Assembly: GCA_963777495.1 (NCBI GenBank) | Contig: CAVZQM010000004.1 | Span: 362,715-426,714, forward strand | Direction: 5' to 3' | Length of the DNA: 64,000 bases | From: an uncultured Actinomycetes bacterium | GTDB taxonomy: Bacteria > Actinomycetota > UBA4738 > HRBIN12 | Shown here: one piece after another, positions 45,545 to 56,254 of the stretch | How positions within the stretch are numbered: position 1 is the stretch's first letter | How the letters are laid out: each line of letters starts with the position of its first letter | Program-made: the position numbers and the translations under genes | Notes under the pieces: generated by a model | The model's input: only the letters and a program-made list of their open reading frames with translations | Told to the model about the DNA's origin: nothing | Database searches by the model: none

Positions 45545-46330
45545 ATGAGCGTTTCGATCCACGACCTACGCGCGTGGAAGGCCGAAGGCAAGCGGTTCGT
45601 CATGCTGACGGCATACGACTTCCCCACGGCCCAGATCCTCGACCGAGCAGGCGTTCCGGTCCTGCTCGTGGGAGATTCCGTGGGACGCAACGTCCTCGGT
45701 TATCCCAATGAGCTCCCGGTCACGATGGAGGACATGCTCCATCACGTGAAGGCCGTCGCCCGGGGAGCGGAGCACGCGATGGTGGTCGGCGACATGCCGT
45801 TCATGTCCTTCCAGGCCTCGGTCGAGGAGGGCGTTCGCAACGCCGGACGTCTCATCAAGGAAGGCGGCGCCCATGCCGTGAAGATCGAGGGGGTCCAGCT
45901 GGACCTGGTGCAGCGGCTGGTCGACATCGGGATACCGGTCATGGGCCACATCGGTCTGACCCCACAATCCGTCTACGGGCTGGGCGGCTTCAAGGTGCAG
46001 GGTCGCGGCGAGGCCGCCACCAAGGTCATGGAGCAGGCCACGCAGCTCGAGAAGGCCGGCGCGTTCGCGGTCGTGCTCGAAGCCATGCCCGCCGAGCTGG
46101 GTGAGGAGATCTCGCGCTCCGTGCAGATCCCGACGATCGGGATCGGGGCGGGGGCCGGCTGCGATGCCCAGGTGTTGGTGATCCACGACCTCCTGGGCAT
46201 CACCGAGAGGCCACCGAAGCTGGCGAAGGCCTATACGGATCTCCGCACGTCGATGACGCAGGCGGTCGAGGCGTTCGTGGCCGACGTGGAGCGGGGCGAT
46301 TTCCCCGACCCGGATCACAGCTACTCCTGA
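45545..46330 (+). CDS. panB: 3-methyl-2-oxobutanoate hydroxymethyltransferase
   Basis: 261 aa from the internal ATG, with FVMLTAYDFPTAQILD, LLVGDSVG and VKIEGV motifs. Confidence 0.95.
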   Translation: MSVSIHDLRAWKAEGKRFVMLTAYDFPTAQILDRAGVPVLLVGDSVGRNVLGYPNELPVTMEDMLHHVKAVARGAEHAMVVGDMPFMSFQASVEEGVRNAGRLIKEGGAHAVKIEGVQLDLVQRLVDIGIPVMGHIGLTPQSVYGLGGFKVQGRGEAATKVMEQATQLEKAGAFAVVLEAMPAELGEEISRSVQIPTIGIGAGAGCDAQVLVIHDLLGITERPPKLAKAYTDLRTSMTQAVEAFVADVERGDFPDPDHSYS

Positions 46331-46347
46331 GCTGACCCCCGCGGAAG

Positions 46348-47907
46348 ATGCCCGGCGGGGCCGGGGAGCGGCCCTACACTCAGCCCATGGTGAGCGAACG
46401 GGGGCGCGTGTCGTTCCTGCTCATGGTGGCCGCGTTGGTCGCCGTCGCGGGGGTGGCGACGATCGGCATCCATCCGCACTGGTCGCCCGACGGGCGGGCC
46501 ACGAACGATGCCCTGCTCGTCGGGTTCGGGTTGGCCGGCGCCATGGTGGCGCTCACTCGGTATCGGAGCACCGGCGATACGCACCCGTTGTTCGTGGGGG
46601 CGGCGCTGCTGGTCGTGGTCGTCCAGACCGTCATCTTCGACCAGCTGTGGATCCTGTCCGACGCCGCATCCCCGTGGGAAGGGCTGTCGTTCCCCTCGCT
46701 CGGCTGGCTCATCGGCTGGATGATCGCCGCCGCGGGGTTGGTCCTGGCTCGTCCGTGGTGGGACCGGCGAGGACGCAAGCCCCTCCGGGCGCCGCTGGTG
46801 CTCGGGTCGGCCGCGGGAGCGCTGCTGATCATGGACGTGATCCTGAGCGTGCCACGGCACTCCCTCCCGCGGGTGAAGAACGCGGAGCTCACCGGGGGAG
46901 GGGCGTTCGCCCACACATCCGGCTTCCACTGGGTCATGGGCGGGATCGTGATCGTCCTCCTGGCGATCGCGGCGTGGCGCGAGATGAAGGCCGGGGGGGA
47001 TGTGCGCTCGACGCACCCCTGGCTGGCGGCCGCCTGGACCCTGGCGGCGGCCGGACAGATCGTCCTGCTGGCGCATCCGGTTTCGTACCGCCCGATCGTG
47101 GTGCCGGCGGAGACGCTCGTCGTGGCAGCGGTCTTCCTGGCTCTGGTGGCATTCCTTGCACCGCAACGATCGGAGGCGTCGCGGGCGAGGAGGGCGTCCG
47201 ACCGGGCCCAGGAGGTCATGGGCGGTCGCGCGGAGATCGCCGCGATGATCTCGCACGAGGTCCGGGGCCCCGTGAGCACCATCCGCGGCCTGGCGGGGAC
47301 GGCTATCTCGCACTACGACCGTCTGGACGACGATGAACGTCGGGAGCTCCTCGGGCTCATCGAGCAGGAGTCCCGCCGGCTGTTGGCCACCGTGACCCAA
47401 GCCTCGACCGCGCTCAAGGTCGACGCCGCCACGGTCAACTACGAGATCCGCGCCCAGCCCCTGGATGCGGCGGTCCGCGAAGGGATCGCGGCGGCCGACG
47501 TCGGGACCCACCCCGTCGTCGAGGATCTCGCCGACGGAGAGGTGGCGATGGACCGGCGATGGATCATCGAGGCGGTCCGTCAATTGGTCGACAACGCCGC
47601 CAAGTTCTCCCCGCCGGACTCGCCGATCCACGTGGCCGCGCGGATCGACGACGGCGTCGCGACGATCGAGGTGGTGGATCGGGGTCCCGGGATCCCGTTC
47701 GAGCGCCGTGACGACGTCTTCGACAAGTATCCGAACTGGCGCCCCGACGGCTACGAGCAAGAGGCGGGCTCGGGGCTGGGGCTCTTCCTCGTCCGCGGCA
47801 TCGTCGCGGGCCATCAGGGCGAGGTTGGCATCGTCGACGTCCCCGGTGGGGGTACGATGCTCCGCGTCCGGATCCCCCGGATCCCCCGGATCCCGATGGA
47901 GGACTAG
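46348..47907 (+). CDS. Membrane sensor histidine kinase (multi-TM N-terminal domain, HisKA + HATPase_c)
   Basis: About 260 aa of TM helices, then H-box ISHEVRGP, N-box DNAAKFSP, and G-boxes DRGPGIP / GSGLGLFLVRGIV. ATG 46387 is an alternative start. Confidence 0.85.
   Translation: MPGGAGERPYTQPMVSERGRVSFLLMVAALVAVAGVATIGIHPHWSPDGRATNDALLVGFGLAGAMVALTRYRSTGDTHPLFVGAALLVVVVQTVIFDQLWILSDAASPWEGLSFPSLGWLIGWMIAAAGLVLARPWWDRRGRKPLRAPLVLGSAAGALLIMDVILSVPRHSLPRVKNAELTGGGAFAHTSGFHWVMGGIVIVLLAIAAWREMKAGGDVRSTHPWLAAAWTLAAAGQIVLLAHPVSYRPIVVPAETLVVAAVFLALVAFLAPQRSEASRARRASDRAQEVMGGRAEIAAMISHEVRGPVSTIRGLAGTAISHYDRLDDDERRELLGLIEQESRRLLATVTQASTALKVDAATVNYEIRAQPLDAAVREGIAAADVGTHPVVEDLADGEVAMDRRWIIEAVRQLVDNAAKFSPPDSPIHVAARIDDGVATIEVVDRGPGIPFERRDDVFDKYPNWRPDGYEQEAGSGLGLFLVRGIVAGHQGEVGIVDVPGGGTMLRVRIPRIPRIPMED
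47869..47895 (+). repeat. 9-bp tandem repeat (CGGATCCCC x3, last copy imperfect) encoding RIPRIPRIP at the kinase C-terminus
   Basis: Direct reading of 47869-47895. Confidence 0.8.
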
Positions 47908-48582
47908 GTGGCCGACGGATCGCGACCCGTGACGCTTCTCATCTGCGACGACCACCGGGTCTTGACCGACGCGTTGGCGATCGTGGTCGGGCTCGACGAC
48001 GGGCTCGAGCTGGTGGCTCCGCCCACCCAGGATCCGCAGTCGGCGATCGATCTCTGCTCGGAGTTCCTCCCCGACGTCGTGCTGATGGACGTGGACCTGA
48101 AAGCCCAGATGTCCGGGATCGACGCGACGCGGGCCATCAAGGAGAACTCCCCCGCCACGAAGGTCATCATCATGACGGCGCACGACGACGACCGGCTGCT
48201 CGTCGATGCGGTCGAAGCCGGCGCATCGGGCTTCTTGAGCAAGGATGACGCGGCGCAGGAGGTGCTCGCGGCGGTGAAGGCCGCGGCCGACGGCGAGGTG
48301 CTGATCGATCCGAGCACGCTTGCCCGGCTCCTGCCGCAGGTCGCCCGAGAGCGCGAGATCCAGCGCGACGCGCTCAACCTGCTGAACGATCTGACGGAAC
48401 GCGAACGCGAGATCTTGTCGCTGCTGGCGCAGGGCAAGCGGAACGACGACATCGCCACGCAGCTGTACATCAGCCCGCAGACCGTGCAGACGCACGTCCG
48501 CAATATCCTGGGCAAGCTCCGCGTCCACTCGAAGCTCGAGGCGGTCGCGTTCGCCGTGCGTCACGGCACCATCGCCGTGTAG
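47908..48582 (+). CDS. NarL/LuxR-family response regulator
   Basis: Receiver domain (LLICDDHRVL, MDVDLK) plus a LuxR HTH (LTEREREILSLLAQGKRNDDIATQLYISPQTVQTHVRNILGKL). The GTG start lies directly after the kinase stop. Confidence 0.9.
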   Translation: MADGSRPVTLLICDDHRVLTDALAIVVGLDDGLELVAPPTQDPQSAIDLCSEFLPDVVLMDVDLKAQMSGIDATRAIKENSPATKVIIMTAHDDDRLLVDAVEAGASGFLSKDDAAQEVLAAVKAAADGEVLIDPSTLARLLPQVAREREIQRDALNLLNDLTEREREILSLLAQGKRNDDIATQLYISPQTVQTHVRNILGKLRVHSKLEAVAFAVRHGTIAV

Positions 48583-48884: not shown

Positions 48885-49472
48885 ATGGACAGGATCCATC
48901 GTATGAGCCGGGGGCGGAAGGCGCTCCTGTCGCTGCTCCTGGTCGGCGCGGTCGGGACCGTCGCCGGTATCGGGACGTTCTCTGCGTTCTCGGCGACGAC
49001 CGTGAACGCCGGCAACGTGTTCGACGCCGGTTCGGTCTCCATCTCCGACAACGACGCGAACAGCGCGATGTACAACATCACGGACGCGGCGCCTGGTGAA
49101 GGCGTCACGGCGTGCATCCAGGTGACGTACACCGGATCGCTCGATTCGACGGTCTCGCTGTACGGCTCGGCCGTCGGGGCCATCGGGACGTACGTGGACC
49201 TCACCGTCGAGAAGGGCACCGGCATGGCCGGCTTCCCGGACTGCACAGGCTTCGTCTCCGAGGCCACCGTGTTCACCGGTGAGCTCGGCGGCTTCGCGTC
49301 GACGCACACGAACTTCGCGAACGGCGTCGTCACGAACCCCGGCGCCCAGACCGAGTGGACCCAGGGCGACGTGCTCGTCTACCGGTTCACATTGACGCTG
49401 CAGGACGACGACGCGGCCATCGGGCTGCAGTCGGGCACCCACAGCTTCACCTGGGAGGCGCAGAACGTCTAA
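48885..49472 (+). CDS. TasA/camelysin-like secreted protein, paralogue A (SipW-cognate-type signal peptide)
   Basis: 195 aa. The signal is RKALLSLLLVGAVGTVAGIGTFSAFSATT, followed by FDAGSVSISDND. The C-terminal HSFTWEAQNV resembles B. subtilis TasA (WAAFND...FASGTLDLS ... FSFEATQ, recalled from memory). SD GAGGAGG lies 6 nt upstream of the ATG. Confidence 0.75.
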   Translation: MDRIHRMSRGRKALLSLLLVGAVGTVAGIGTFSAFSATTVNAGNVFDAGSVSISDNDANSAMYNITDAAPGEGVTACIQVTYTGSLDSTVSLYGSAVGAIGTYVDLTVEKGTGMAGFPDCTGFVSEATVFTGELGGFASTHTNFANGVVTNPGAQTEWTQGDVLVYRFTLTLQDDDAAIGLQSGTHSFTWEAQNV

Positions 49473-49483
49473 GCACCGCTGAT

Positions 49484-49512
49484 CCGGGCGGGTCGCTTCG
49501 CGACCCGCCCGG
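49484..49512 (+). terminator. 13-bp perfect GC hairpin after paralogue A (attenuating terminator or RNA-stabilising element; no T tract)
   Basis: CCGGGCGGGTCGC-TTC-GCGACCCGCCCGG. Confidence 0.45.
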
Positions 49513-49617
49513 GGCCTCCTCGGGAGGTTCGGGCCCAACTCCTTCCTGGACCCGGACCTCCCGATCGAAGCCGGAAGCGCACACCGAGCACCGAGGAAGG
49601 ACGAGGAGGGGTCTGGC

Positions 49618-50223
49618 ATGAGAAGCACCATCGATCGCATGAGCAGGGGTCGCAAGACGCTCCTGTCGCTCCTACTGGTCGGCGTGGTCGGGACGGTCGC
49701 GAGCATCGGGACGTACTCCGCGTTCTCCGCGACCACCGTGAACGCCGGCGACAGCTTCGCCGCAGGAACCGTCGTGATCTCCGACAACGACGCCGGGGTC
49801 GCGATGTATACGGTCACGAACGCGCGACCGCTCGACGTCGTCACCCGGTGCATCCGTGTGACCTACACGGGTTCGCTCCCGGCGCTGGTCCGCCTCTACA
49901 CGACGACGCCCATCAACGCCTTCGGGCAGTACGTCACGCTTTCGATCGACAAGGGGACGATGCCGGTCGGCACCGTGTTCCCGAACTGCACCGGCTTCAC
50001 GCCGGACGCGGCACCGAACGTGTTCACGGGAACCCTGTCGAGCTTCGGCACCGGAAGGACGAACTTCGCCACCGGTGTGCCCGCCAACCCCGGCGTCGCG
50101 GTCCAGTGGGTGAACAACGACTCGCTGGTCTACCGGTTCACGCTGACCATGCAGGACAACCCGCTCGCGACGGGTGGGACGTCCGGCACGCACAGCTTCA
50201 CGTGGGAGGCGCAGAACGTCTAG
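49618..50223 (+). CDS. TasA/camelysin-like secreted protein, paralogue B
   Basis: 201 aa with RKTLLSLLLVGVVGTVASIGTYSAFSATT, FAAGTVVISDND, CIRVTYTGSLPA and a C-terminal HSFTWEAQNV. Confidence 0.75.
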   Translation: MRSTIDRMSRGRKTLLSLLLVGVVGTVASIGTYSAFSATTVNAGDSFAAGTVVISDNDAGVAMYTVTNARPLDVVTRCIRVTYTGSLPALVRLYTTTPINAFGQYVTLSIDKGTMPVGTVFPNCTGFTPDAAPNVFTGTLSSFGTGRTNFATGVPANPGVAVQWVNNDSLVYRFTLTMQDNPLATGGTSGTHSFTWEAQNV

Positions 50224-50240
50224 CAGGGCCGACGATCGCG

Positions 50241-50270
50241 CCGGGCGGGTCGCGTTCGCGACCCGCCCGG
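50241..50270 (+). terminator. 13-bp perfect GC hairpin after paralogue B (same sequence as 49484..49512)
   Basis: CCGGGCGGGTCGC-GTTC-GCGACCCGCCCGG. Confidence 0.45.
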
Positions 50271-50318
50271 GCACCAACCAACGGACGTCGGGCGGCACAC
50301 ATCGGGAGGGACGACGAA

Positions 50319-50888
50319 GTGGAGCGACGGAAGAACGGGCATCGGGCCGACTCCCGCGTGCGGGTGATCGGCTTCCTCCTCGGCATCGGCGTGGCCGCGA
50401 GCATCGTCGCGGCCCAGCGCATCCCCGCGGGGGCCGGCACCCTGGGCGCGGACATCCATGTCGTGGTCGTCCCCACGGGTGAGCTCGCCGTCAAGCCGTC
50501 GGGCAGGGTGCTCCAAGGGACGGGGCTCACACCCGCGTCCGACCCCGCGAAGGGGACCGTCGAGGTGTTGAACCAGACGGGGAGCGTGCTGCGGGTCTAC
50601 GTGCGAGGCATCCCCGATACGCCCGGCCTGGATCGAACCCTGTGGATCTCGGTCAGGGGCGCCGACGATGAGGAGATCTACCGAGGTGCCCTGGGTGGGT
50701 TCCGCCATTGGTCAGCGGTCGGCGTCACGATCCAACCCGGCGAGTGGCACACGTTCGCCTTCGAAGCGTGGGTGCCTGGCGACGTCGGACCGGGGTACGC
50801 GGGGAAGATCTCCCAGGTCGATCTGGGGTTCCTCACGCGGGTGAAGTCCGGTGCACGAGCCGGAGCACCGGCCGGAGAACGAGCATGA
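50319..50888 (+). CDS. Hypothetical membrane-anchored protein (N-terminal TM, beta-rich ectodomain) of the TasA-like locus
   Basis: GTG 50319 is preceded by GGGAGGG with an 8-nt spacer. The TM segment is VIGFLLGIGVAASIVAA. The stop overlaps the ATG of paralogue C (ATGA). No recognisable family. Confidence 0.55.
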   Translation: MERRKNGHRADSRVRVIGFLLGIGVAASIVAAQRIPAGAGTLGADIHVVVVPTGELAVKPSGRVLQGTGLTPASDPAKGTVEVLNQTGSVLRVYVRGIPDTPGLDRTLWISVRGADDEEIYRGALGGFRHWSAVGVTIQPGEWHTFAFEAWVPGDVGPGYAGKISQVDLGFLTRVKSGARAGAPAGERA

Positions 50889-51466
50889 ATCGGTCGACCC
50901 GGATCCTCGCGGCGTGCATCGCGACCGGGCTGATCGCGGTCGCATCCGGCCGCGCGACGTTCGCGGCGTTCACGCTCACCACGCAGAACACCAACGATTC
51001 GTACTCCGCCGGAACGGTGACGCTGGCCGACAACGACGCCGGGACGGTGATGTGGGACGTCGCGAACCAACTTCCGACATCGACCGCGATCGTGCGCTGT
51101 ATCCGTGTCACGTACACCGGATCGCTTCCCGCCGCGGTTCGCCTGTACACGACGACGGCGGCCTCACCGCTCGATCCCCACCTGAACGTCACCGTCGAGA
51201 AGGGCTCGATGCCCGTCGGCACGGTCTTCCCGAACTGCACCGGCTTCGTCGCGGAGGCCACCATCTCCGCGGCCGGTTCGTTGCAGGCGTTCAAGACCTC
51301 TCGGACGGGGTGGGCCAACGGCGCGGCGGCGTTCCCCGGGACGCAGACCACGTGGAACGCGGGCAACTCCTTGGTCTACCGGTTCACCGTCCAGCTGCAG
51401 AACGTGTTCGCCGCCCAGGGCCTCACGGGGCTCGTCGGATTCACCTGGGAGGCGCAGAACCAATGA
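50885..51466 (+). CDS. TasA/camelysin-like secreted protein, paralogue C (divergent signal)
   Basis: 193 aa with ILAACIATGLIAVASGRATFAAFTLTT, YSAGTVTLADND, CIRVTYTGSLPAAVRLYTTT and a C-terminal GFTWEAQNQ. Confidence 0.75.
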   Translation: MNRSTRILAACIATGLIAVASGRATFAAFTLTTQNTNDSYSAGTVTLADNDAGTVMWDVANQLPTSTAIVRCIRVTYTGSLPAAVRLYTTTAASPLDPHLNVTVEKGSMPVGTVFPNCTGFVAEATISAAGSLQAFKTSRTGWANGAAAFPGTQTTWNAGNSLVYRFTVQLQNVFAAQGLTGLVGFTWEAQNQ

Positions 51467-52071
51467 GGGGCGTGCTGCGACGCCTGCTGTTGTTCCTGGC
51501 GTGGGTCGTCCTCGGGACGTTGGGGGGACTCGTGCTGGCCATCGGCCTCCCGAACGCGTTCCATGCGAAGAGCCTGACGGTGATGTCGGGCAGCATGGAG
51601 CCGGTGATCGGCACCGGCGACATCGTGGTCGCTCGCCAGACCGCTCCTATGGACGTCCGTGTCGGGGACATCGTGACGTTCCGCGATCCGCTCAACCACG
51701 AGCGGTTGATCACCCACCGCGTGCGCGAGATGCACGTGTCGGCGACGACGTCGTGTTCGTCACGCGTGGCGACGCGAACACCGGCGAGGAGCAGTGGGCG
51801 CTGCCGAAGGACGGCACGATCGGTCGGGTGGCGTACCACCATCCCGAAGCTCGGCTACTTCATGGTCTGGTTCCACTCGACGTTCGGCCTGTTGCTCTTG
51901 ATCGTGCTCCCGACGCTCTTGCTGGGCGCTTCGGAGCTCTGGCGTCTGTGGCGGCCGCGCGGAGCCCACGAGCCGGGTGCGGCGAAGCGGTCGCCCGCGC
52001 CAGCAGGAGACGGAACCCGAGGGACGGGATGCGGCCCGACGGGGACGACGCGGGCGGAGGCTCCCCGATGA
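51463..52071 (+). CDS. sipW: SipW-like (archaeal/ER-type, S26B) signal peptidase I, carrying two compensating frameshifts as assembled
   Basis: It has an N-terminal TM segment, the catalytic Ser in MSGSMEPVIGTGDIVV and the His in LITHRV. The conserved FVTRGDANTGEE...GTIGRVAYH block is readable only in the frame of ORF 51501..53033, between about 51741 and 51840. It then returns to IPKLGYFMVWF plus a C-terminal TM segment. Confidence 0.75.
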   Translation: MRGVLRRLLLFLAWVVLGTLGGLVLAIGLPNAFHAKSLTVMSGSMEPVIGTGDIVVARQTAPMDVRVGDIVTFRDPLNHERLITHRVREMHVSATTSCSSRVATRTPARSSGRCRRTARSVGWRTTIPKLGYFMVWFHSTFGLLLLIVLPTLLLGASELWRLWRPRGAHEPGAAKRSPAPAGDGTRGTGCGPTGTTRAEAPR

Positions 52072-53033
52072 AGCGGTGGCGTAGTCGTCGCTTCCTGGTG
52101 CCGATGACGATCGGGTTGGTGCTCGGCCTGAGTGGCGGGGCGTTCGCGGCGTTCTCGGGCACGACGACGAACGGAGCCAACCGCTTCATCGCCGCCGCCG
52201 ACTGGGAGGCACCACACGTCACCCGTACGACGGTCGCGAAGACCGTGGGGTACCTGGCGGGCTCCATCCGTCAGGGCGGGCAGTTCTACGTCTACGCGCA
52301 GATCGACGACGGCGGCAATCCCCCCGCGGGCGTCGGAACGGTCACGGCGAACGTCTCCGCGTTCTCGACCGGAGGCACGGCCGTCGCGATGGTCGCGGGA
52401 GCCTTCTCCGAACAGGGCGTCCCCTACAACTACCGGAGCGCCGCGCGGACCGCGATCAACCCGATGGCGAACGGCACGCGGACGTACTCGTTCACCATGT
52501 CCGACACCGCGGTGCCGGTGCACACGCAGACCGAGACCGGGTTCACGGTCATCATCGACAACACGGCGCCCGCACCGGTCAACCTGACGACGGCGAACCG
52601 TGCCGGTGGCGTGGTCGGACGACCCGAGACAGGGGACAGCGTCACGTTCACGTGGAACTCCCCGATCGATCCCGAGTCACTCCTGCCCGGCTGGAACGGC
52701 GGGTCACCGGCGACCGTGACCGTGCGCATCAGGAACGTGGGGAACAACGATCGCATCCGTATCCGCGGGACGGCCAACAACAACCTCAACTTCGGACAGG
52801 TGTTCCTGCAGCAGAACTACGTTCCCGCTACGCGCACGTTCACGGGATCCGCGATCACGATGCTCGGCAACACCGTCACCATCGTGCTGGGCACGCCGAG
52901 CGGCACGGTGAACACCGTCACCGTCGCGTCAACGACAACGTGGCAGGCCTCGAACGGTGCCTACGACGTGGCCGGCAACCCCTGCTCCACGGCCACGATC
53001 ACCGGCTCGGGCTCGCCCAGGATCAACTTCTAG
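52068..53033 (+). CDS. Secreted 321-aa protein with SipW-cognate-like signal peptide (candidate accessory, anchor or tip subunit)
   Basis: MKRWRSRRFLVPMTIGLVLGLSGGAFAAFSGTTTNGANRF. The remainder is T/N/G/V-rich and beta-like. The ATG overlaps the sipW stop (ATGA). Confidence 0.65.
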   Translation: MKRWRSRRFLVPMTIGLVLGLSGGAFAAFSGTTTNGANRFIAAADWEAPHVTRTTVAKTVGYLAGSIRQGGQFYVYAQIDDGGNPPAGVGTVTANVSAFSTGGTAVAMVAGAFSEQGVPYNYRSAARTAINPMANGTRTYSFTMSDTAVPVHTQTETGFTVIIDNTAPAPVNLTTANRAGGVVGRPETGDSVTFTWNSPIDPESLLPGWNGGSPATVTVRIRNVGNNDRIRIRGTANNNLNFGQVFLQQNYVPATRTFTGSAITMLGNTVTIVLGTPSGTVNTVTVASTTTWQASNGAYDVAGNPCSTATITGSGSPRINF

Positions 53034-53181
53034 GAGACGGATGGACACGAGACTTTCGGCCATTACCCGTTCAGAGGTATCAACCGCAACGGGTGCACGA
53101 GCCGAAGATTCCCTTGCGGACGCCTTGGCAGCGGAGTTCGCATCGGGATCGCCTACCCCTTTCGGCGATCCCACCAAGATC

Positions 53182-53218
53182 GAAGGCCCGAGCCCACCCC
53201 TCCCGGGCTCGGGCCTTC
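53182..53218. terminator. Bidirectional hairpin between the convergent TasA-like operon and menE (14-bp stem)
   Basis: GAAGGCCCGAGCCC (53182-53195) pairs perfectly with GGGCTCGGGCCTTC (53205-53218) across a 9-nt loop. Confidence 0.6.
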
Positions 53219-53240
53219 GTTATCCCCCGGCGGCCGGGGC

Positions 53241-54485
53241 TCAGCCCGGAAGCTCGCCACGCCGGATCTTGCCGGAGGCGGTGCGCGGGATCTCGGACAC
53301 CAGCACCAGCGCCTTCGGTGCCTTGAAGCGCGCGATCCGATCCGCCGTGTGCGCGCGCAACTCGGAGAGGCTGGGAGGATCGTCGAACCGGCCCGGCACC
53401 ACGAACGCCACCACCTGCCGTCCCCACTCCGCGTGCGGCCGGCCGGCCACGGCGACATCCGCGACCTTCGGATGGTCTCGCAGGACGCGCTCGACCTCCT
53501 TGGGCCATACCGTCTCGGCCCCGGTGCGGATCGCCTCGTCCAAGCGTCCTTCGACGCGCAGCCGTCCGTCATCCTCGAGCGCTCCCGCGTCGCCCGTTCG
53601 GAGCCAGCCGTCGAGCGTGAACGCGGCCGCCGTGGACGCGGGAGCGTGTCGGTAGCCCTCCATCAGGGTGGGACCGCTCACCTCGATCTCACCGTCGCTC
53701 GCGAAACGCACACGAACACCCTCGAACGGCCGGCCGTCGTACGCGATGCCACCACAGGTCTCCGTGAGGCCGTACGTCGTCACGATATGGCCACCCAACG
53801 CCGCGGCCCGCTCGGCCAGACCGGTGTCGACGCTCGAGCCGCCCACCAGGACCACCCCGAACCGCGAGAGGTCGACCTCTGCGTCCACGAGGCGGCGCAG
53901 CATGGTAGGGACGAGCGCGATCCGCGCTCCGGCCGGGACGACGTCGGCCTGATCGAGCCCCAGCCGATCGAGGACGGTGACGGGCGCGCCGGACAGCACG
54001 TGGCGGAGCAGCACGAGCATGCCTCCGATATGCGCCGGAGACAGGCAGCACACCCAGCGCTCCGACGACGGCGGGATGGCGGGCCGCTCGGCGGGCTCCT
54101 CGGACGCAAGGGCAGCTGACGACAGCCCCACCGCGGCGGCGATAGCGTCGCGGGAGAGCTCCACCAGCTTGGGACCACCGCGTGTGCCCGAGGTCGCGAT
54201 GACCATCGCCACGCGCTCGGGGTCGGCTACGGCGGGATCCGCGAACATCACCTCGTCGTCCGCGGTGACGACCGATGCCGGGCGGGCCAGGTCGACGATC
54301 GCCCCCCGCTCGCGGTCGGTCAGGCGCGCGTCCAACGGCAAGATCGCCGCGCCCACATCCCAGAGATCCGCCACGACGTCCACCCACGCCGGGCCCGGCG
54401 CGAGGTCGACCGCGACCAGGAAGCCCGGTGCGGCGCCCAGGTACCGGCTCACGTCCGGTAGGCTAGCCGAAACGTTCGAGTGCAC
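53241..54485 (-). CDS. menE: o-Succinylbenzoate--CoA ligase (AMP-dependent synthetase family)
   Basis: AMP-binding motif [10 protein letters not shown], a short MenE-like length, and a position next to menB/menA/menD. Start is GTG 54485, with GTG 54452 as an alternative. Confidence 0.8.
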
Positions 54486-54506
54486 GCTCTAGGAGTGATC
54501 GGTCCC

Positions 54507-55331
54507 ATGGACGAGTCCGTTGCGTGGCAGCCCTCCGGCGCCTACACCGACATCCGCTACGAGACGGCGGACGGCATCGCGAAGATCACGATCGACCGGC
54601 CGGAGGTGCGCAACGCGTTCCGCCCGCTCACGGTGCGCGAGCTGATCGCGGCGTTCGACGTGGCCCGCGACGACCCCGCGATCGGCGTGATCGTGCTGAC
54701 GGGTGAGGGTCCCGACGCGTTCTGCAGCGGCGGTGATCAGAAGATCCGCGGCGACGACGGCTACGTCGACGAGCACGGCATCGGCCGGTTGAACGTACTC
54801 GACCTCCAGATCCAGATCCGGCGCATGCCGAAGCCGGTCGTGGCGATGGTCGCCGGCTACGCGATCGGTGGTGGCCACGTGCTGCACGTGTGTTGCGACC
54901 TGACGATCGCCGCCGACAACGCGCGTTTCGGCCAGACCGGCCCGCGGGTCGGGTCGTTCGACGGCGGATACGGGATCAGCCTGCTCGCGCGCCAGATCGG
55001 CGAGAAGCGCGCGAAGGAGATCTGGTTCCTGTGTCGCCAGTACGACGCACCGACCGCGCTCGCTTGGGGGCTGGTGAACGCCGTCGTTCCCCTCGACGAA
55101 CTGGAGGCGACCACCGTCGCGTGGTGTCGCGAGATGCTCGCGCTCTCGCCGCTGGCGCTCCGGCTGCTCAAGGCCGGCGCGAACGCCGGGGTGGACGGCT
55201 TGGCCGGCGTGCAGCAACTGGCCGGGGACGCGACGCTCCTCTATTACATGAGCGAGGAGGCGCAGGAGGGACGCGACGCGTTCACGGAGAAGCGCCCCCC
55301 AGACTTCTCACGATTCCCGAAGCGCCCGTGA
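54507..55331 (+). CDS. menB: 1,4-dihydroxy-2-naphthoyl-CoA synthase
   Basis: Crotonase fold with [28 protein letters not shown] and GGDQKIRG...[22 protein letters not shown] 54480 is an alternative start. Confidence 0.93.
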
Positions 55332-56254
55332 GCTCCGCTTCCGTGTGGTGGCGCGGCACCCGGCCGCGAACGCTTGGCCTCGGCGCGGTGCCGGTACTCG
55401 TCGGGGCCGCCGCCGCCGGGCACGTCGTGGTGTGGCGTCTGGTCGCGGCGTTGGTGGTGGCAGCCGGACTGCAGATCGGCGTGAACCTGGCGAACGACTA
55501 CTTCGACGGCGTCCGCGGCGTGGATACGCACGAGCGGATGGGGCCCCCGAGATTGGTGGCGAGCGGCGCGGCCTCGCCCCGCGCGGTCCTCGCCGCCGCA
55601 CTCGTGGCGCTCGGACTCGCCGCGGTCTGCGGGTTGGCATTGGCGCTCGCGACGACGCCAGTGCTGATCCTGATCGTGGGCGCACTCGCGCTGGCGGCCG
55701 CGCTGCTGTATTCGGGCGGACCGCGCCCGTACGCAGGGCTCGGCCTGGGTGAGCTCGCGGTGTTCGTGTTCTTCGGCTTGATGGCGACGTGCGGCTCGGC
55801 CTACGTCATGGTCGAGACCGTGCCGGCTCCCGCGTGGTGGGGCGGCGTCGTGATGGGCCTGCTCGCGGTCGCGGTCCTGGTCGCGAACAACCTCCGCGAC
55901 ATCCCCACGGACGAAGCCGGTGGCAAGCGGACGCTCGCGGTCCGGCTCGGCGACCGACGCACGCGGAGGCTCTACCGGGTATGCGTCGTCGGCGCGTTCG
56001 CGACGATCGTCATCGGCGTCGTCGTGTTCATCGCCGACGAGTCGATCGGCCTGCCGCAGTGGGGGCTGTTCGGGCTGATCGCGTGGCCGCTCGCGATCCG
56101 TCCCTTCGAGCGGATCCGCACCGCGACGGGAGCCGATCTGATCCCCGTCCTCACGGGAACGGCCCTGCTGCACGCCGCGTGCGGGGTGACGCTCGCGCTC
56201 GGTTTGGCGCTCTCGCACACCGAGTTCGTGGTCCACACCGTTCAGGTGACGTGA
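55328..56254 (+). CDS. menA: 1,4-dihydroxy-2-naphthoate polyprenyltransferase
   Basis: UbiA-family membrane protein with [14 protein letters not shown] and [22 protein letters not shown] motifs. The GTG start overlaps the menB stop. Confidence 0.9.

Follow-up and report, generated by a model that had tools for sequence, protein, structure and literature searches.

Six plus-strand genes at positions 48885–53033 of the window, the 64,000-nucleotide stretch of DNA analyzed here from an uncultured soil actinobacterium, probably encode an extracellular fibre of the TasA superfamily, either a bundling pilus or a biofilm-matrix fibre. The first-pass annotation had proposed a candidate fibre or pilus-like system composed of TasA/camelysin-like subunits and a SipW-type peptidase, a proposal supported by the best fold match (8AUR), by PF12389 matches in 34 of 36 family members, by TIGR02228 and by conserved synteny. 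The positions and strand that it gave for all six genes were confirmed. The TasA-like subunit paralogues are g1 (48885–49472, 195 aa), which has its own ribosome-binding site, g2 (49618–50223, 201 aa) and g4 (50885–51466, 193 aa). The g3 gene (50319–50888, 189 aa, GTG start) encodes a beta-sandwich preceded by an N-terminal hydrophobic helix, g5 (51463–52071) is sipW, an archaeal/ER-type signal peptidase I that is disrupted as written, and g6 (52068–53033, 321 aa) encodes an accessory protein with a SipW-type signal like that of the subunits.

The motifs described earlier for the three paralogues of about 195 residues were found in each of them. The N-terminal signal motifs are GTFSAFSA (g1), GTYSAFSA (g2) and ATFAAFTL (g4), the following strand reads AGSVSISDNDA, AGTVVISDNDA and AGTVTLADNDA, respectively, and the C-terminal FTWEAQN is common to all. 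The g2 protein shares 63% identity with g1 and 47% with g4, a similarity far beyond chance since it is detectable in the DNA itself as direct-repeat families. Family profiles were also employed. PF12389 is matched by 34 of the 36 family members, with a best E of 3.1e-10, while the window's three subunits score 21.7, 21.5 and, for g4, 16.3 bits over the N-terminal third only, below the gathering score of 22.5. The TIGR04088 signal model gave a sub-threshold 13.3 bits on g1 (threshold 19).

The AF2 model of g2 had a pLDDT of 77.6, and residues 22–43, the mature N-terminus, were disordered in the monomer, as expected of a donor strand. When the model was compared with the PDB by Foldseek, the best match was the TasA fibre 8AUR (E 1.1e-5, probability 1.0, TM 0.51), followed by AbpA (7UEG), an archaeal TasA homologue; the TM-scores are modest at 0.4–0.5. 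No PDB sequence was matched in a profile search. The 1619 homologue clusters of g2 include many with PF12389 or the name 'TasA family protein', and 'SipW-like signal peptide' is also among the names. The subunits contain an invariant Cys pair. The signal of g4 is divergent, and relatives keep a separate orthologue group at its position; g4 is probably a minor or adapter subunit, and g2 probably the major one.

The AF2 model of g3 (pLDDT 82.7) has a helix at residues 9–32 and strands at 44–175. Its Foldseek matches were self-complemented FimA (6r74, 5lp9, 2m5g and 6erj; E ~1e-5), AbpA 7UEG (4.8e-5) and the Sulfolobus 0406 thread 7PNB. Pfam gave no match for g3 among 33 members, and hhalign detected no sequence relationship to the subunits (probability 7.5%). 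At 17 residues, its hydrophobic stretch does not exceed the length of the subunits' cleaved signals; after it comes a P-A-G-A-G motif conserved almost without exception (P36 invariant, the others at least 90%). The beta-rich character described earlier for g3 agrees with the model, but membrane anchoring is unproven. By analogy with TafF, g3 is a candidate base, anchor or terminator of the fibre; if the helix is cleaved, it may instead be a further secreted subunit.

The g6 protein carries GGAFAAFSGTTTNGANRF, and the claim that it has the same unusual signal as the subunits was verified by hhalign, which aligned residues 1–42 with the subunit N-terminus (probability 95%, E 4.6e-8), while the remainder was unrelated. 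A few g6 homologues have the JGI name 'SipW-like signal peptide', and four of 35 gave weak Big_13 matches. The region beyond the N-terminus probably consists of Ig-like domains. Although no sequence similarity to TapA or TafC was detectable, g6 is a candidate nucleator or tip, the analogue of these proteins.

The order tasA, g3, tasA, sipW, g6 recurs in dozens of Actinomycetota MAGs. The co-occurrence in relatives expected for such a system was observed in 61 related loci, all Actinomycetota MAGs or so labelled, with sipW present in 60, g3 in 47 and g6 in 39. The novelty of the locus had been overstated, as TasA homologues in Actinobacteriota have been noted already (PMC9245690; bioRxiv 10.64898/2026.01.04.697558) and NCBI names for homologues include 'TasA family protein'. 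However, no experimentally tested actinobacterial example was found in the literature searched.

A single transcription unit, as previously assumed, is not established; perfect G+C hairpins follow g1 and g2. The first (13 bp, plus strand, 49484–49512) lies within a 61-nt window, 49470–49530, that folds at -40.8 kcal/mol (z -4.3) and also contains a second hairpin; equivalent hairpins follow stand-alone tasA genes in relatives. It is a candidate terminator, attenuator or mRNA stabilizer. The hairpin after g2 (14 bp, plus strand, 50241–50270, inverted repeat I23) is nearly identical in sequence and folds at -36.2 kcal/mol. A third perfect hairpin, of 15 bp, separates g6 from the convergent menE (53181–53219, inverted repeat I22; -48.2 kcal/mol, z -4.5) and is probably a bidirectional terminator that closes the locus. 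T tracts are absent from the hairpins, and a search for the sigma-70 consensus found no promoter. The last four genes were said to be chained by ATGA overlaps; these are present at g3/g4, g4/g5 and g5/g6, but the last is created by an extra G at 52003. The overlaps of the g4 start with g3 and of its stop with sipW suggest translational coupling.

Upstream on the plus strand are a sensor histidine kinase (46348–47907; HisKA and HATPase_c, seen on a near-identical contig) and its paired LuxR/NarL-type response regulator (47908–48582; Response_reg and GerE domains). Among close relatives (L002–L005, L007–L011, L013 and L036), a same-strand pair directly precedes the tasA-like gene that comes first, and some distant loci (L012, L015–L017, L019, L024, L061, L067, L071 and L072) have it directly upstream as well. 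By a strict count, only 12 of 61 loci have a response regulator upstream. The pair is a candidate regulator of the locus.

The possibility was considered that the three subunits are instead secreted enzymes of the camelysin type (Peptidase M73), or non-polymerizing surface or spore-associated proteins that share only the SipW export route. The Pfam family is named for a metallo-endopeptidase, and JGI labels some homologues 'camelysin-like metallo-endopeptidase'. However, the alignment gives no sign of a conserved HExxH-type metal site: the 36 aligned sequences have no invariant histidine column, and H192 is the sole nearly invariant histidine. The top structural matches are fibres rather than enzymes, the accessory genes, which are conserved and have features resembling pilins and donor strands, fit assembly rather than catalysis, and conservation peaks at the N-terminal strand and the C-terminal motif of the subunits. 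Conservation at the protomer interface has been reported for Bacillaceae camelysins (PMC10151520). An enzymatic or non-polymerizing role is considered unlikely. Many homologues are also named 'predicted ribosomally synthesized peptide with SipW-like signal peptide' by JGI, but that name is a mere label of the TIGR04088 signal-peptide model. The proteins are folded beta-sandwich domains of about 160 residues with confident models and modification enzymes are absent from the locus, so that precursors of ribosomally synthesized peptides are highly improbable.

The assignment of g5 to the archaeal/ER (SipW) kind of peptidase was upheld: SGSMEP and THRV are in frame, and the score against TIGR02228 (archaeal-type signal peptidase I) is 65.3 bits as written and 100.4 when repaired, above the cut-off of 51.85. 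However, relative to the 98.8%-identical contig L001, a 1-nt deletion and a 1-nt insertion place a 97-nt segment (51740–51836, plus strand) out of frame, and the conserved GDAN box is missing from the gene as written. Three-frame translation recovered the conserved GDDVVFVTRGDANTGEEQW...GRVAYH box in the +2 frame; the extra G at 52003 is a third indel. The first-pass annotation had overlooked these frameshifts. There is close to an even chance that they are assembly or polishing errors and that sipW is intact, and the system functional, in the organism. The window is apparently metagenome-assembled, L001 (ENA sample ERZ25039494) is in frame at both sites, as are all 59 aligned relatives through the GDAN box, the shifted segment keeps a GC3 typical of coding sequence when read in the conserved frame (0.94, compared with 0.91 in the flanks and 0.72 in the annotated frame), and g1–g4 and g6 show no decay. 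Nevertheless, three indels in a single gene of 609 nt, with two of them offsetting each other 97 nt apart, are a striking cluster for random error, because across about 10 kb of coding sequence on either side (the kinase, the response regulator, g1–g4, g6, menE and menB) the window shows no other frameshift, while some 37 spurious insertions occur in the other contig. Moreover, none of the three sites lies in a homopolymer run. It is plausible, with somewhat less than an even chance, that the lesions are real, the third catalytic box having been lost through a compensated frameshift. The indels cluster in one gene of an otherwise clean sequence, the pair restores the frame and keeps the C-terminal transmembrane segment and the g6 stop/start overlap, and at 51836 the sister contig has ACC where the relatives have CAC, which fits insertion of a C followed by loss of the neighbouring C. 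This explanation rests on one unvalidated sequence, the same allele occurs in no independent contig, and the remaining five genes show no damage at all, so that a loss would have to be very recent. If the frameshift is real, the fibre system would be non-functional, having been recently inactivated, or would rely on another peptidase.

Gene content, family and fold assignments, synteny and the N-terminal module common to g6 and the subunits are observed, whereas polymerization, the cleavage site, subunit order, the parts played by g3 and g6, regulation and the function of the hairpins are inferred. In the proposed fibre, the major subunits g1 and g2 and the minor or adapter subunit g4 would be jelly-roll proteins exported by Sec. 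SipW would trim their unusual signals at T-[YF]-[SA]/A-F (the slash marks the cut), by analogy with TasA (TWA/AFND), exposing the N-terminal strand AFSATTVNAGxSF..., which would insert into the beta-sheet of the next subunit by donor-strand complementation. The first donor strand may be given by g6 at the distal end (compare TapA or TafC) and the last accepted by g3, which may anchor the fibre in the membrane or end it there (compare TafF). The hairpins after g1 and g2 could set a high ratio of major subunits to accessory proteins, and the upstream histidine kinase and LuxR regulator could control expression.

The locus resembles the Bacillus subtilis tapA-sipW-tasA operon in its jelly-roll subunit, whose best fold match is the TasA fibre, in the T-aromatic-small/A-F sequence around the predicted point of cleavage, behind which lies a segment resembling a donor strand, and in a dedicated ER/archaeal-type SipW. 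The N-terminus of TapA, which nucleates the fibre, resembles the TasA donor strand (PMC9674648, PMC10151520), and the N-terminus of g6 likewise mimics that of the subunits. As the first-pass annotation had noted, the gene content is unlike that of the Bacillus operon: there are three subunit paralogues rather than one, an additional pilin-like protein, g3, that begins with a hydrophobic helix, and a g6 with no detectable sequence similarity to TapA. The subunits here also have the invariant Cys pair, a histidine kinase and LuxR-type regulator lie upstream whereas the Bacillus operon is under SinR control, and scores against the Bacillus TasA and SipW equivalog models are far below (15 vs. 450 bits and 56–82 vs. 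190 bits). The Bacillus cereus sipW-tasA-calY locus is similar in having more than one TasA/camelysin paralogue adjoining sipW without a TapA orthologue; it is not known to contain g3-like or g6-like genes.

Among archaeal systems, the Pyrobaculum calidifontis bundling pili AbpA/AbpB are related by fold, AbpA (7UEG) being the second-best match of g2 and a top match of g3, and a larger TapA-like protein is encoded beside AbpA (PMC9245690). However, the ABP operon has no dedicated peptidase and its sequences are very divergent. The haloarchaeal Tat-fimbriae (Tafi) have a described tip-adapter-core-anchor-peptidase architecture, with TafA/TafE pilins, TafC tip, TafF anchor and TafD peptidase (PMC11821415, PMC12337348). 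The locus has the same components: pilins in several paralogous copies, a signal peptidase of its own, a larger protein of several domains as the proposed tip and initiator, and a protein combining a membrane helix with a jelly roll as the proposed anchor and terminator. The top fold matches of g3 are the FimA entries reported for TafE (5NKT, 2M5G, 6R74 and 6R7E). The likeness lies in parts and fold. The present locus belongs to a bacterium and its signals are of the Sec type, not Tat, the DUF5305 (TafG) accessory gene is absent, and the hydrophobic helix of g3 is N-terminal whereas the membrane span of Haloarcula hispanica TafF is C-terminal. The subunits are nearer to bacterial TasA than to the Tafi pilins, with 8AUR ranking first.

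The six plus-strand genes of the TasA-like fibre locus, g1 to g6, were all recovered in an ORF listing and in the raw sequence, and every motif quoted for them in the first-pass annotation was found in the window. The subunit paralogues are g1 (48885-49472, 195 aa), g2 (49618-50223, 201 aa) and g4 (50885-51466, 193 aa). The 189-aa protein g3 (50319-50888) has a GTG start with GGGAGG 5' of it, g5 (51463-52071) is the signal peptidase gene sipW and g6 (52068-53033) encodes a 321-aa accessory protein. The last four genes are chained by ATGA overlaps, seen at g3/g4, g4/g5 and g5/g6. The locus is flanked on one side by a histidine kinase and LuxR-type response regulator pair (46348-48582) and on the other by convergent menE, with a perfect 15-bp hairpin in the g6-menE gap. 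Menaquinone biosynthesis genes adjoin the locus within 53241-56254: menE is on the minus strand, and the plus strand has menB and a gene of the UbiA family that is probably menA. The convergence of menE with g6 is found in many relatives and is probably due to lineage synteny, not to a functional connection. Long ORFs also lie antisense to real genes, for example one of 747 aa opposite the kinase and regulator (46321-48564, minus strand); these are the usual artefact of DNA of about 70% G+C and are not genes.

The three proteins of about 195 aa had been described as TasA/camelysin-like paralogues. Sequence identity to g2 is 63% for g1 and 47% for g4, and the relationship is visible also at the DNA level. 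In the Pfam family PF12389 (Peptidase_M73, TasA/camelysin), g1, g2 and g4 scored 21.7, 21.5 and 16.3 bits, just below the gathering threshold of 22.5 bits, and the match covers only the N-terminal third, that is, the signal and the first strand. Among 36 aligned family members, which are 55-89% identical to g2, 34 matched PF12389 at E<=0.01 (best 3.1e-10), so the family as a whole belongs to PF12389. Many of the 1619 homologue clusters of the subunit carry a precomputed PF12389 assignment; names among them include 'TasA family protein' at NCBI and, at JGI, names taken from the SipW-type signal model TIGR04088. The equivalog model for B. subtilis TasA, NF046066 (cut-off 450 bits), gave 15.4 bits for g1 and no match for the remaining subunits, indicating that they are family members at most and not orthologues of B. 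subtilis TasA.

A search of the subunit family profile against PDB sequences returned no match, and the link between the subunits and TasA comes from fold comparison only. The AlphaFold2 model of g2 has a pLDDT of 77.6, with residues 22-43 disordered. When this model was submitted to Foldseek, the sole strong fold match was the TasA fibre 8AUR (E 1.1e-5, probability 1.00, TM 0.51), followed by the archaeal TasA homologue AbpA, 7UEG (E 4.3e-3, probability 0.96). The predicted jelly-roll or beta-sandwich thus places the subunits in the TasA superfamily by fold, in agreement with the original assignment. No histidine is among the invariant subunit columns and only H192 is nearly invariant, so that a conserved metal site of the HExxH type is not apparent. 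The alignment also has two invariant cysteines (36/36 subunits), C78 (about 49849-49851) and C124 (about 49987-49989) in g2, with equivalents in g1 and g4; their conservation suggests a structural disulfide.

The donor strand with which one TasA molecule completes its neighbour is made up of residues 28-38 of the mature protein (PMC9674648), and the SipW cleavage site of TasA has a Phe at P2' (PMC10269814). The subunit motif T-[YF]-[SA]-A-F parallels TWA|AF of TasA, and the longer window motif T-[YF]-[SA]-A-F-S-A-T-T-x-N-x-x-x-x-F is the positional equivalent of the TasA site and donor strand. Donor-strand polymerisation of the subunits would fit the disordered N-terminus of the model and the strong conservation of both the N-terminal strand and the C-terminal motif. 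The SipW-cognate signal model did not bear out the expected signal. TIGR04088, which has a cut-off of 19 bits on the N-terminus, gave 13.3 bits for g1 (E 0.071) and no match for g2, g4 or g6. The JGI product name derived from TIGR04088 is present on homologues of the subunits and of g6.

The relationship of g6 to the subunits is confined to its first 42 or so residues (hhalign probability 95%, E 4.6e-8), which supports the earlier statement that the 321-aa protein has the same unusual signal. The shared module consists of the signal plus A-A-F-S-x-T-T-x-N-x-x-N-x-F-x-A. By hhalign, the body of g6 was unrelated to the subunits and to g3, and no similarity was seen between its two halves. There was no Pfam or NCBIfam match to g6 itself, including the TapA/YqxM models, and the family profile found nothing meaningful among PDB sequences. 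Weak matches to the Ig-like domain Big_13 were obtained in 4/35 homologues, and g6 has DNT-x-P and D-x-AGN motifs. The N-terminus of TapA resembles the TasA donor strand, and the role of TapA as nucleator rests on that resemblance (PMC9674648, PMC10151520). The N-terminal relationship between g6 and the subunits is the one reported for TapA and TasA, which may be read as a functional analogy only.

The beta-rich nature ascribed to g3 was borne out by its model (pLDDT 82.7), in which a helix at residues 9-32 is followed by a beta-sandwich. Pfam had no match in any of 33 g3 homologues. The best fold matches were self-complemented FimA structures (6r74, 6r7e, 5lp9, 2m5g, 6erj and 5nkt; E ~1e-5), and further matches were AbpA (4.8e-5), the Sulfolobus 0406 thread, CfaB and PapA. 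All of these are donor-strand pilins, at TM-scores of only 0.35-0.50. The FimA-like fold is a predicted structural resemblance only, and alignment of the g3 and subunit families with hhalign was not significant (probability 7.5%). Chaperone-usher pili were considered and rejected, the locus having no gene for a PapD-type chaperone or an outer-membrane usher. The hydrophobic stretch of g3 is 17 residues long, not longer than the cleaved signals of the subunits. Just past the hydrophobic helix, residues 36-40 (about 50424-50438) read P-A-G-A-G, with P36 invariant and the others at least 90% conserved. This could be a signal-peptidase site, in which case g3 may be secreted rather than membrane-anchored.

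The identity of g5 as a SipW-type peptidase was upheld by TIGR02228 (archaeal/ER-type signal peptidase I; MEROPS S26B; cut-off 51.85 bits), with 65.3 bits as written and 100.4 after splicing of the frames. The Ser box SGSMEP and the His box THRV are in frame in the translation, and SGSMEP and THR[VI] are conserved across all aligned sipW relatives. In the equivalog model for B. subtilis SipW, NF046067 (cut-off 190 bits), g5 reached 56.2 bits as written and 82.3 when repaired, and is not assigned as an orthologue of that protein. After THRVREMHV, the annotated frame continues as an Arg/Ser-rich stretch without similarity to relatives, while the +2 frame reads GDDVVFVTRGDANTGEEQWALPKDGTIGRVAYH, the conserved third box. 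This GDxN...D box, GDAN in the window, holds an Asp with an important part in the activity of SipW/Sec11. It is out of frame in the window, in the +2 frame between 51740 and 51836, and in frame in the sister contig and in 59/59 aligned SipW homologues. Compared with the sister contig, a base is missing from the window at 51740 and an additional one is present at 51836, 97 nt apart. Since a 120-nt frame plot is too coarse for a 97-nt shift, GC3 was counted directly. For the shifted segment it was 0.94 when read in the +2 frame and 0.72 when read as annotated, vs. 0.91 in the flanks. A further extra base, a G at 52003, is the third indel. It changes the non-conserved tail and gives rise to the ATGA overlap with g6; the SipW of relatives ends ...PDEAVA, 19 nt into g6. 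As written, SipW is probably inactive.

These indels may be errors of assembly, or the gene may truly carry a lesion. The sister contig, found by exact-protein look-ups, is a 300-kb ENA metagenome contig (ERZ25039494 contig_12182) that is 98.8% identical to the window and therefore represents a sister strain, not the same sequence. It is error-prone and clearly the noisier assembly, with about 37 spurious single-base insertions where it aligns to 39617-60192 of the window; these break menE, menB, menA, panB and g1 in its gene calls, and the contig is unreliable as a reference on its own. In the window the kinase, the regulator, g1-g4, g6, menE and menB are all intact. Against this background, three indels in one gene of 609 nt stand out. 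Look-ups with the g2 and g3 proteins returned only the sister contig, and those with g1, g6 and the 202-aa SipW returned no record. A degenerate DNA pattern accepting either sipW allele found nothing in JGI metagenomes, and no independent copy of either allele was thus obtained by these two routes. Programmed frameshifting was considered and dropped, because the relatives are in frame without exception and the two indels of the 97-nt shift are not in homopolymer runs or obvious slippery sequences. The frameshifts concern any user of the window sequence, and sipW first needs verification or repair.

A scan of species-representative genomes with the subunit profile identified 78 loci, nearly all in Actinomycetota MAGs and none in cultured organisms, in keeping with the actinobacterial type of genome originally proposed. 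They span uncultured Actinomycetes, Solirubrobacterales, Thermoleophilaceae, Acidimicrobiia, Frankiaceae and Mycobacteriales. Of the 61 related loci whose flanks were long enough, 60 have sipW together with the subunit gene, 47 have g3, 39 have g6 and 31 have all three, so that the gene neighbourhood is conserved in relatives. The commonest order is tasA, g3, tasA, sipW, g6. The kinase and regulator pair, directly upstream of g1 on the same strand, keeps its position in the closest relatives and some distant loci (12/61 by a strict count), which suggests dedicated regulation of the locus. The proposal of a single transcription unit fared less well. Perfect, near-identical G+C hairpins of 13-14 bp, GGGCGGGTCGC...GCGACCCGCCC, lie 3' of g1 (49484-49512) and g2 (50241-50270) and argue against one simple operon. 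Equivalent hairpins are found in relatives 3' of stand-alone subunit genes and not of the subunit gene that overlaps sipW, a pattern that points to graded expression, or to the major subunits having transcripts of their own. A scan for sigma-70 promoters and T-tract terminators gave nothing useful in this sequence of 68% G+C.

These features can be assembled into a mechanism in which the subunits would be exported by Sec and their signals trimmed by SipW at T-[YF]-[SA]|A-F. The g1 and g2 proteins would then polymerise by donor strand, and g4 would join as a minor subunit. The initial donor strand, at the distal end, would come from g6, the final one would be taken up by g3 at the membrane, and the locus would be controlled by the kinase and LuxR pair. 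Of this, the family, the fold, the synteny and the N-terminal module common to g6 and the subunits are established from the data, and polymerisation, the order of subunits, anchoring and regulation are inferred. The tentative reading, which we regard as possible rather than probable, is that uncultured soil Actinomycetota (the window's lineage, Solirubrobacterales, Thermoleophilia, Acidimicrobiia and others) make a cell-attached, donor-strand-exchanged pilus of TasA type, with g6 as tip or nucleator, g4 as adapter, g1 and g2 as shaft and g3 as membrane-tethered, pilin-like terminator. It would be a bacterial counterpart of the haloarchaeal Tat-fimbriae (Tafi) and the bundling pili (ABP) of Pyrobaculum calidifontis, not a free matrix fibre as in Bacillus, and g3 and g6 would be two new machinery families. 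If so, TasA-type donor-strand fibres with tip, shaft and anchor extend to high-G+C Gram-positives that are abundant in soil and uncultured, the Bacillus matrix fibre is tied to the Tafi and ABP pili through a common parts list, and two families without annotation, g3 and g6, acquire roles. In practical terms, its six genes form a compact cassette that could be expressed heterologously and studied by cryo-EM.

The claim of novelty held in one respect, as full-text literature searches found no experimental study of an actinobacterial TasA-type system. However, the proteins are not new as a family: databases already name them, a survey of PF12389 recorded TasA homologues in Actinobacteriota (PMC9245690), and in a 2026 preprint Actinomycetota sequences fall within the central TasA cluster (bioRxiv 10.64898/2026.01.04.697558). 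The gene content does differ from that of the Bacillus operon, as had been noted. Unlike the latter, the locus has several subunit paralogues, a two-component regulator, a tip-like protein unrelated to TapA (g6) and, in g3, a pilin-like protein whose N-terminal helix is hydrophobic. Its layout resembles that of the archaeal Tafi loci. The Tafi anchor TafF, whose gene lies in the pilin locus, has a single membrane helix and a pilin-like jelly-roll, and g3, likened to it by the description of TafF only, has in its predicted model a helix (residues 9-32), possibly cleaved, and a pilin-like beta-sandwich.
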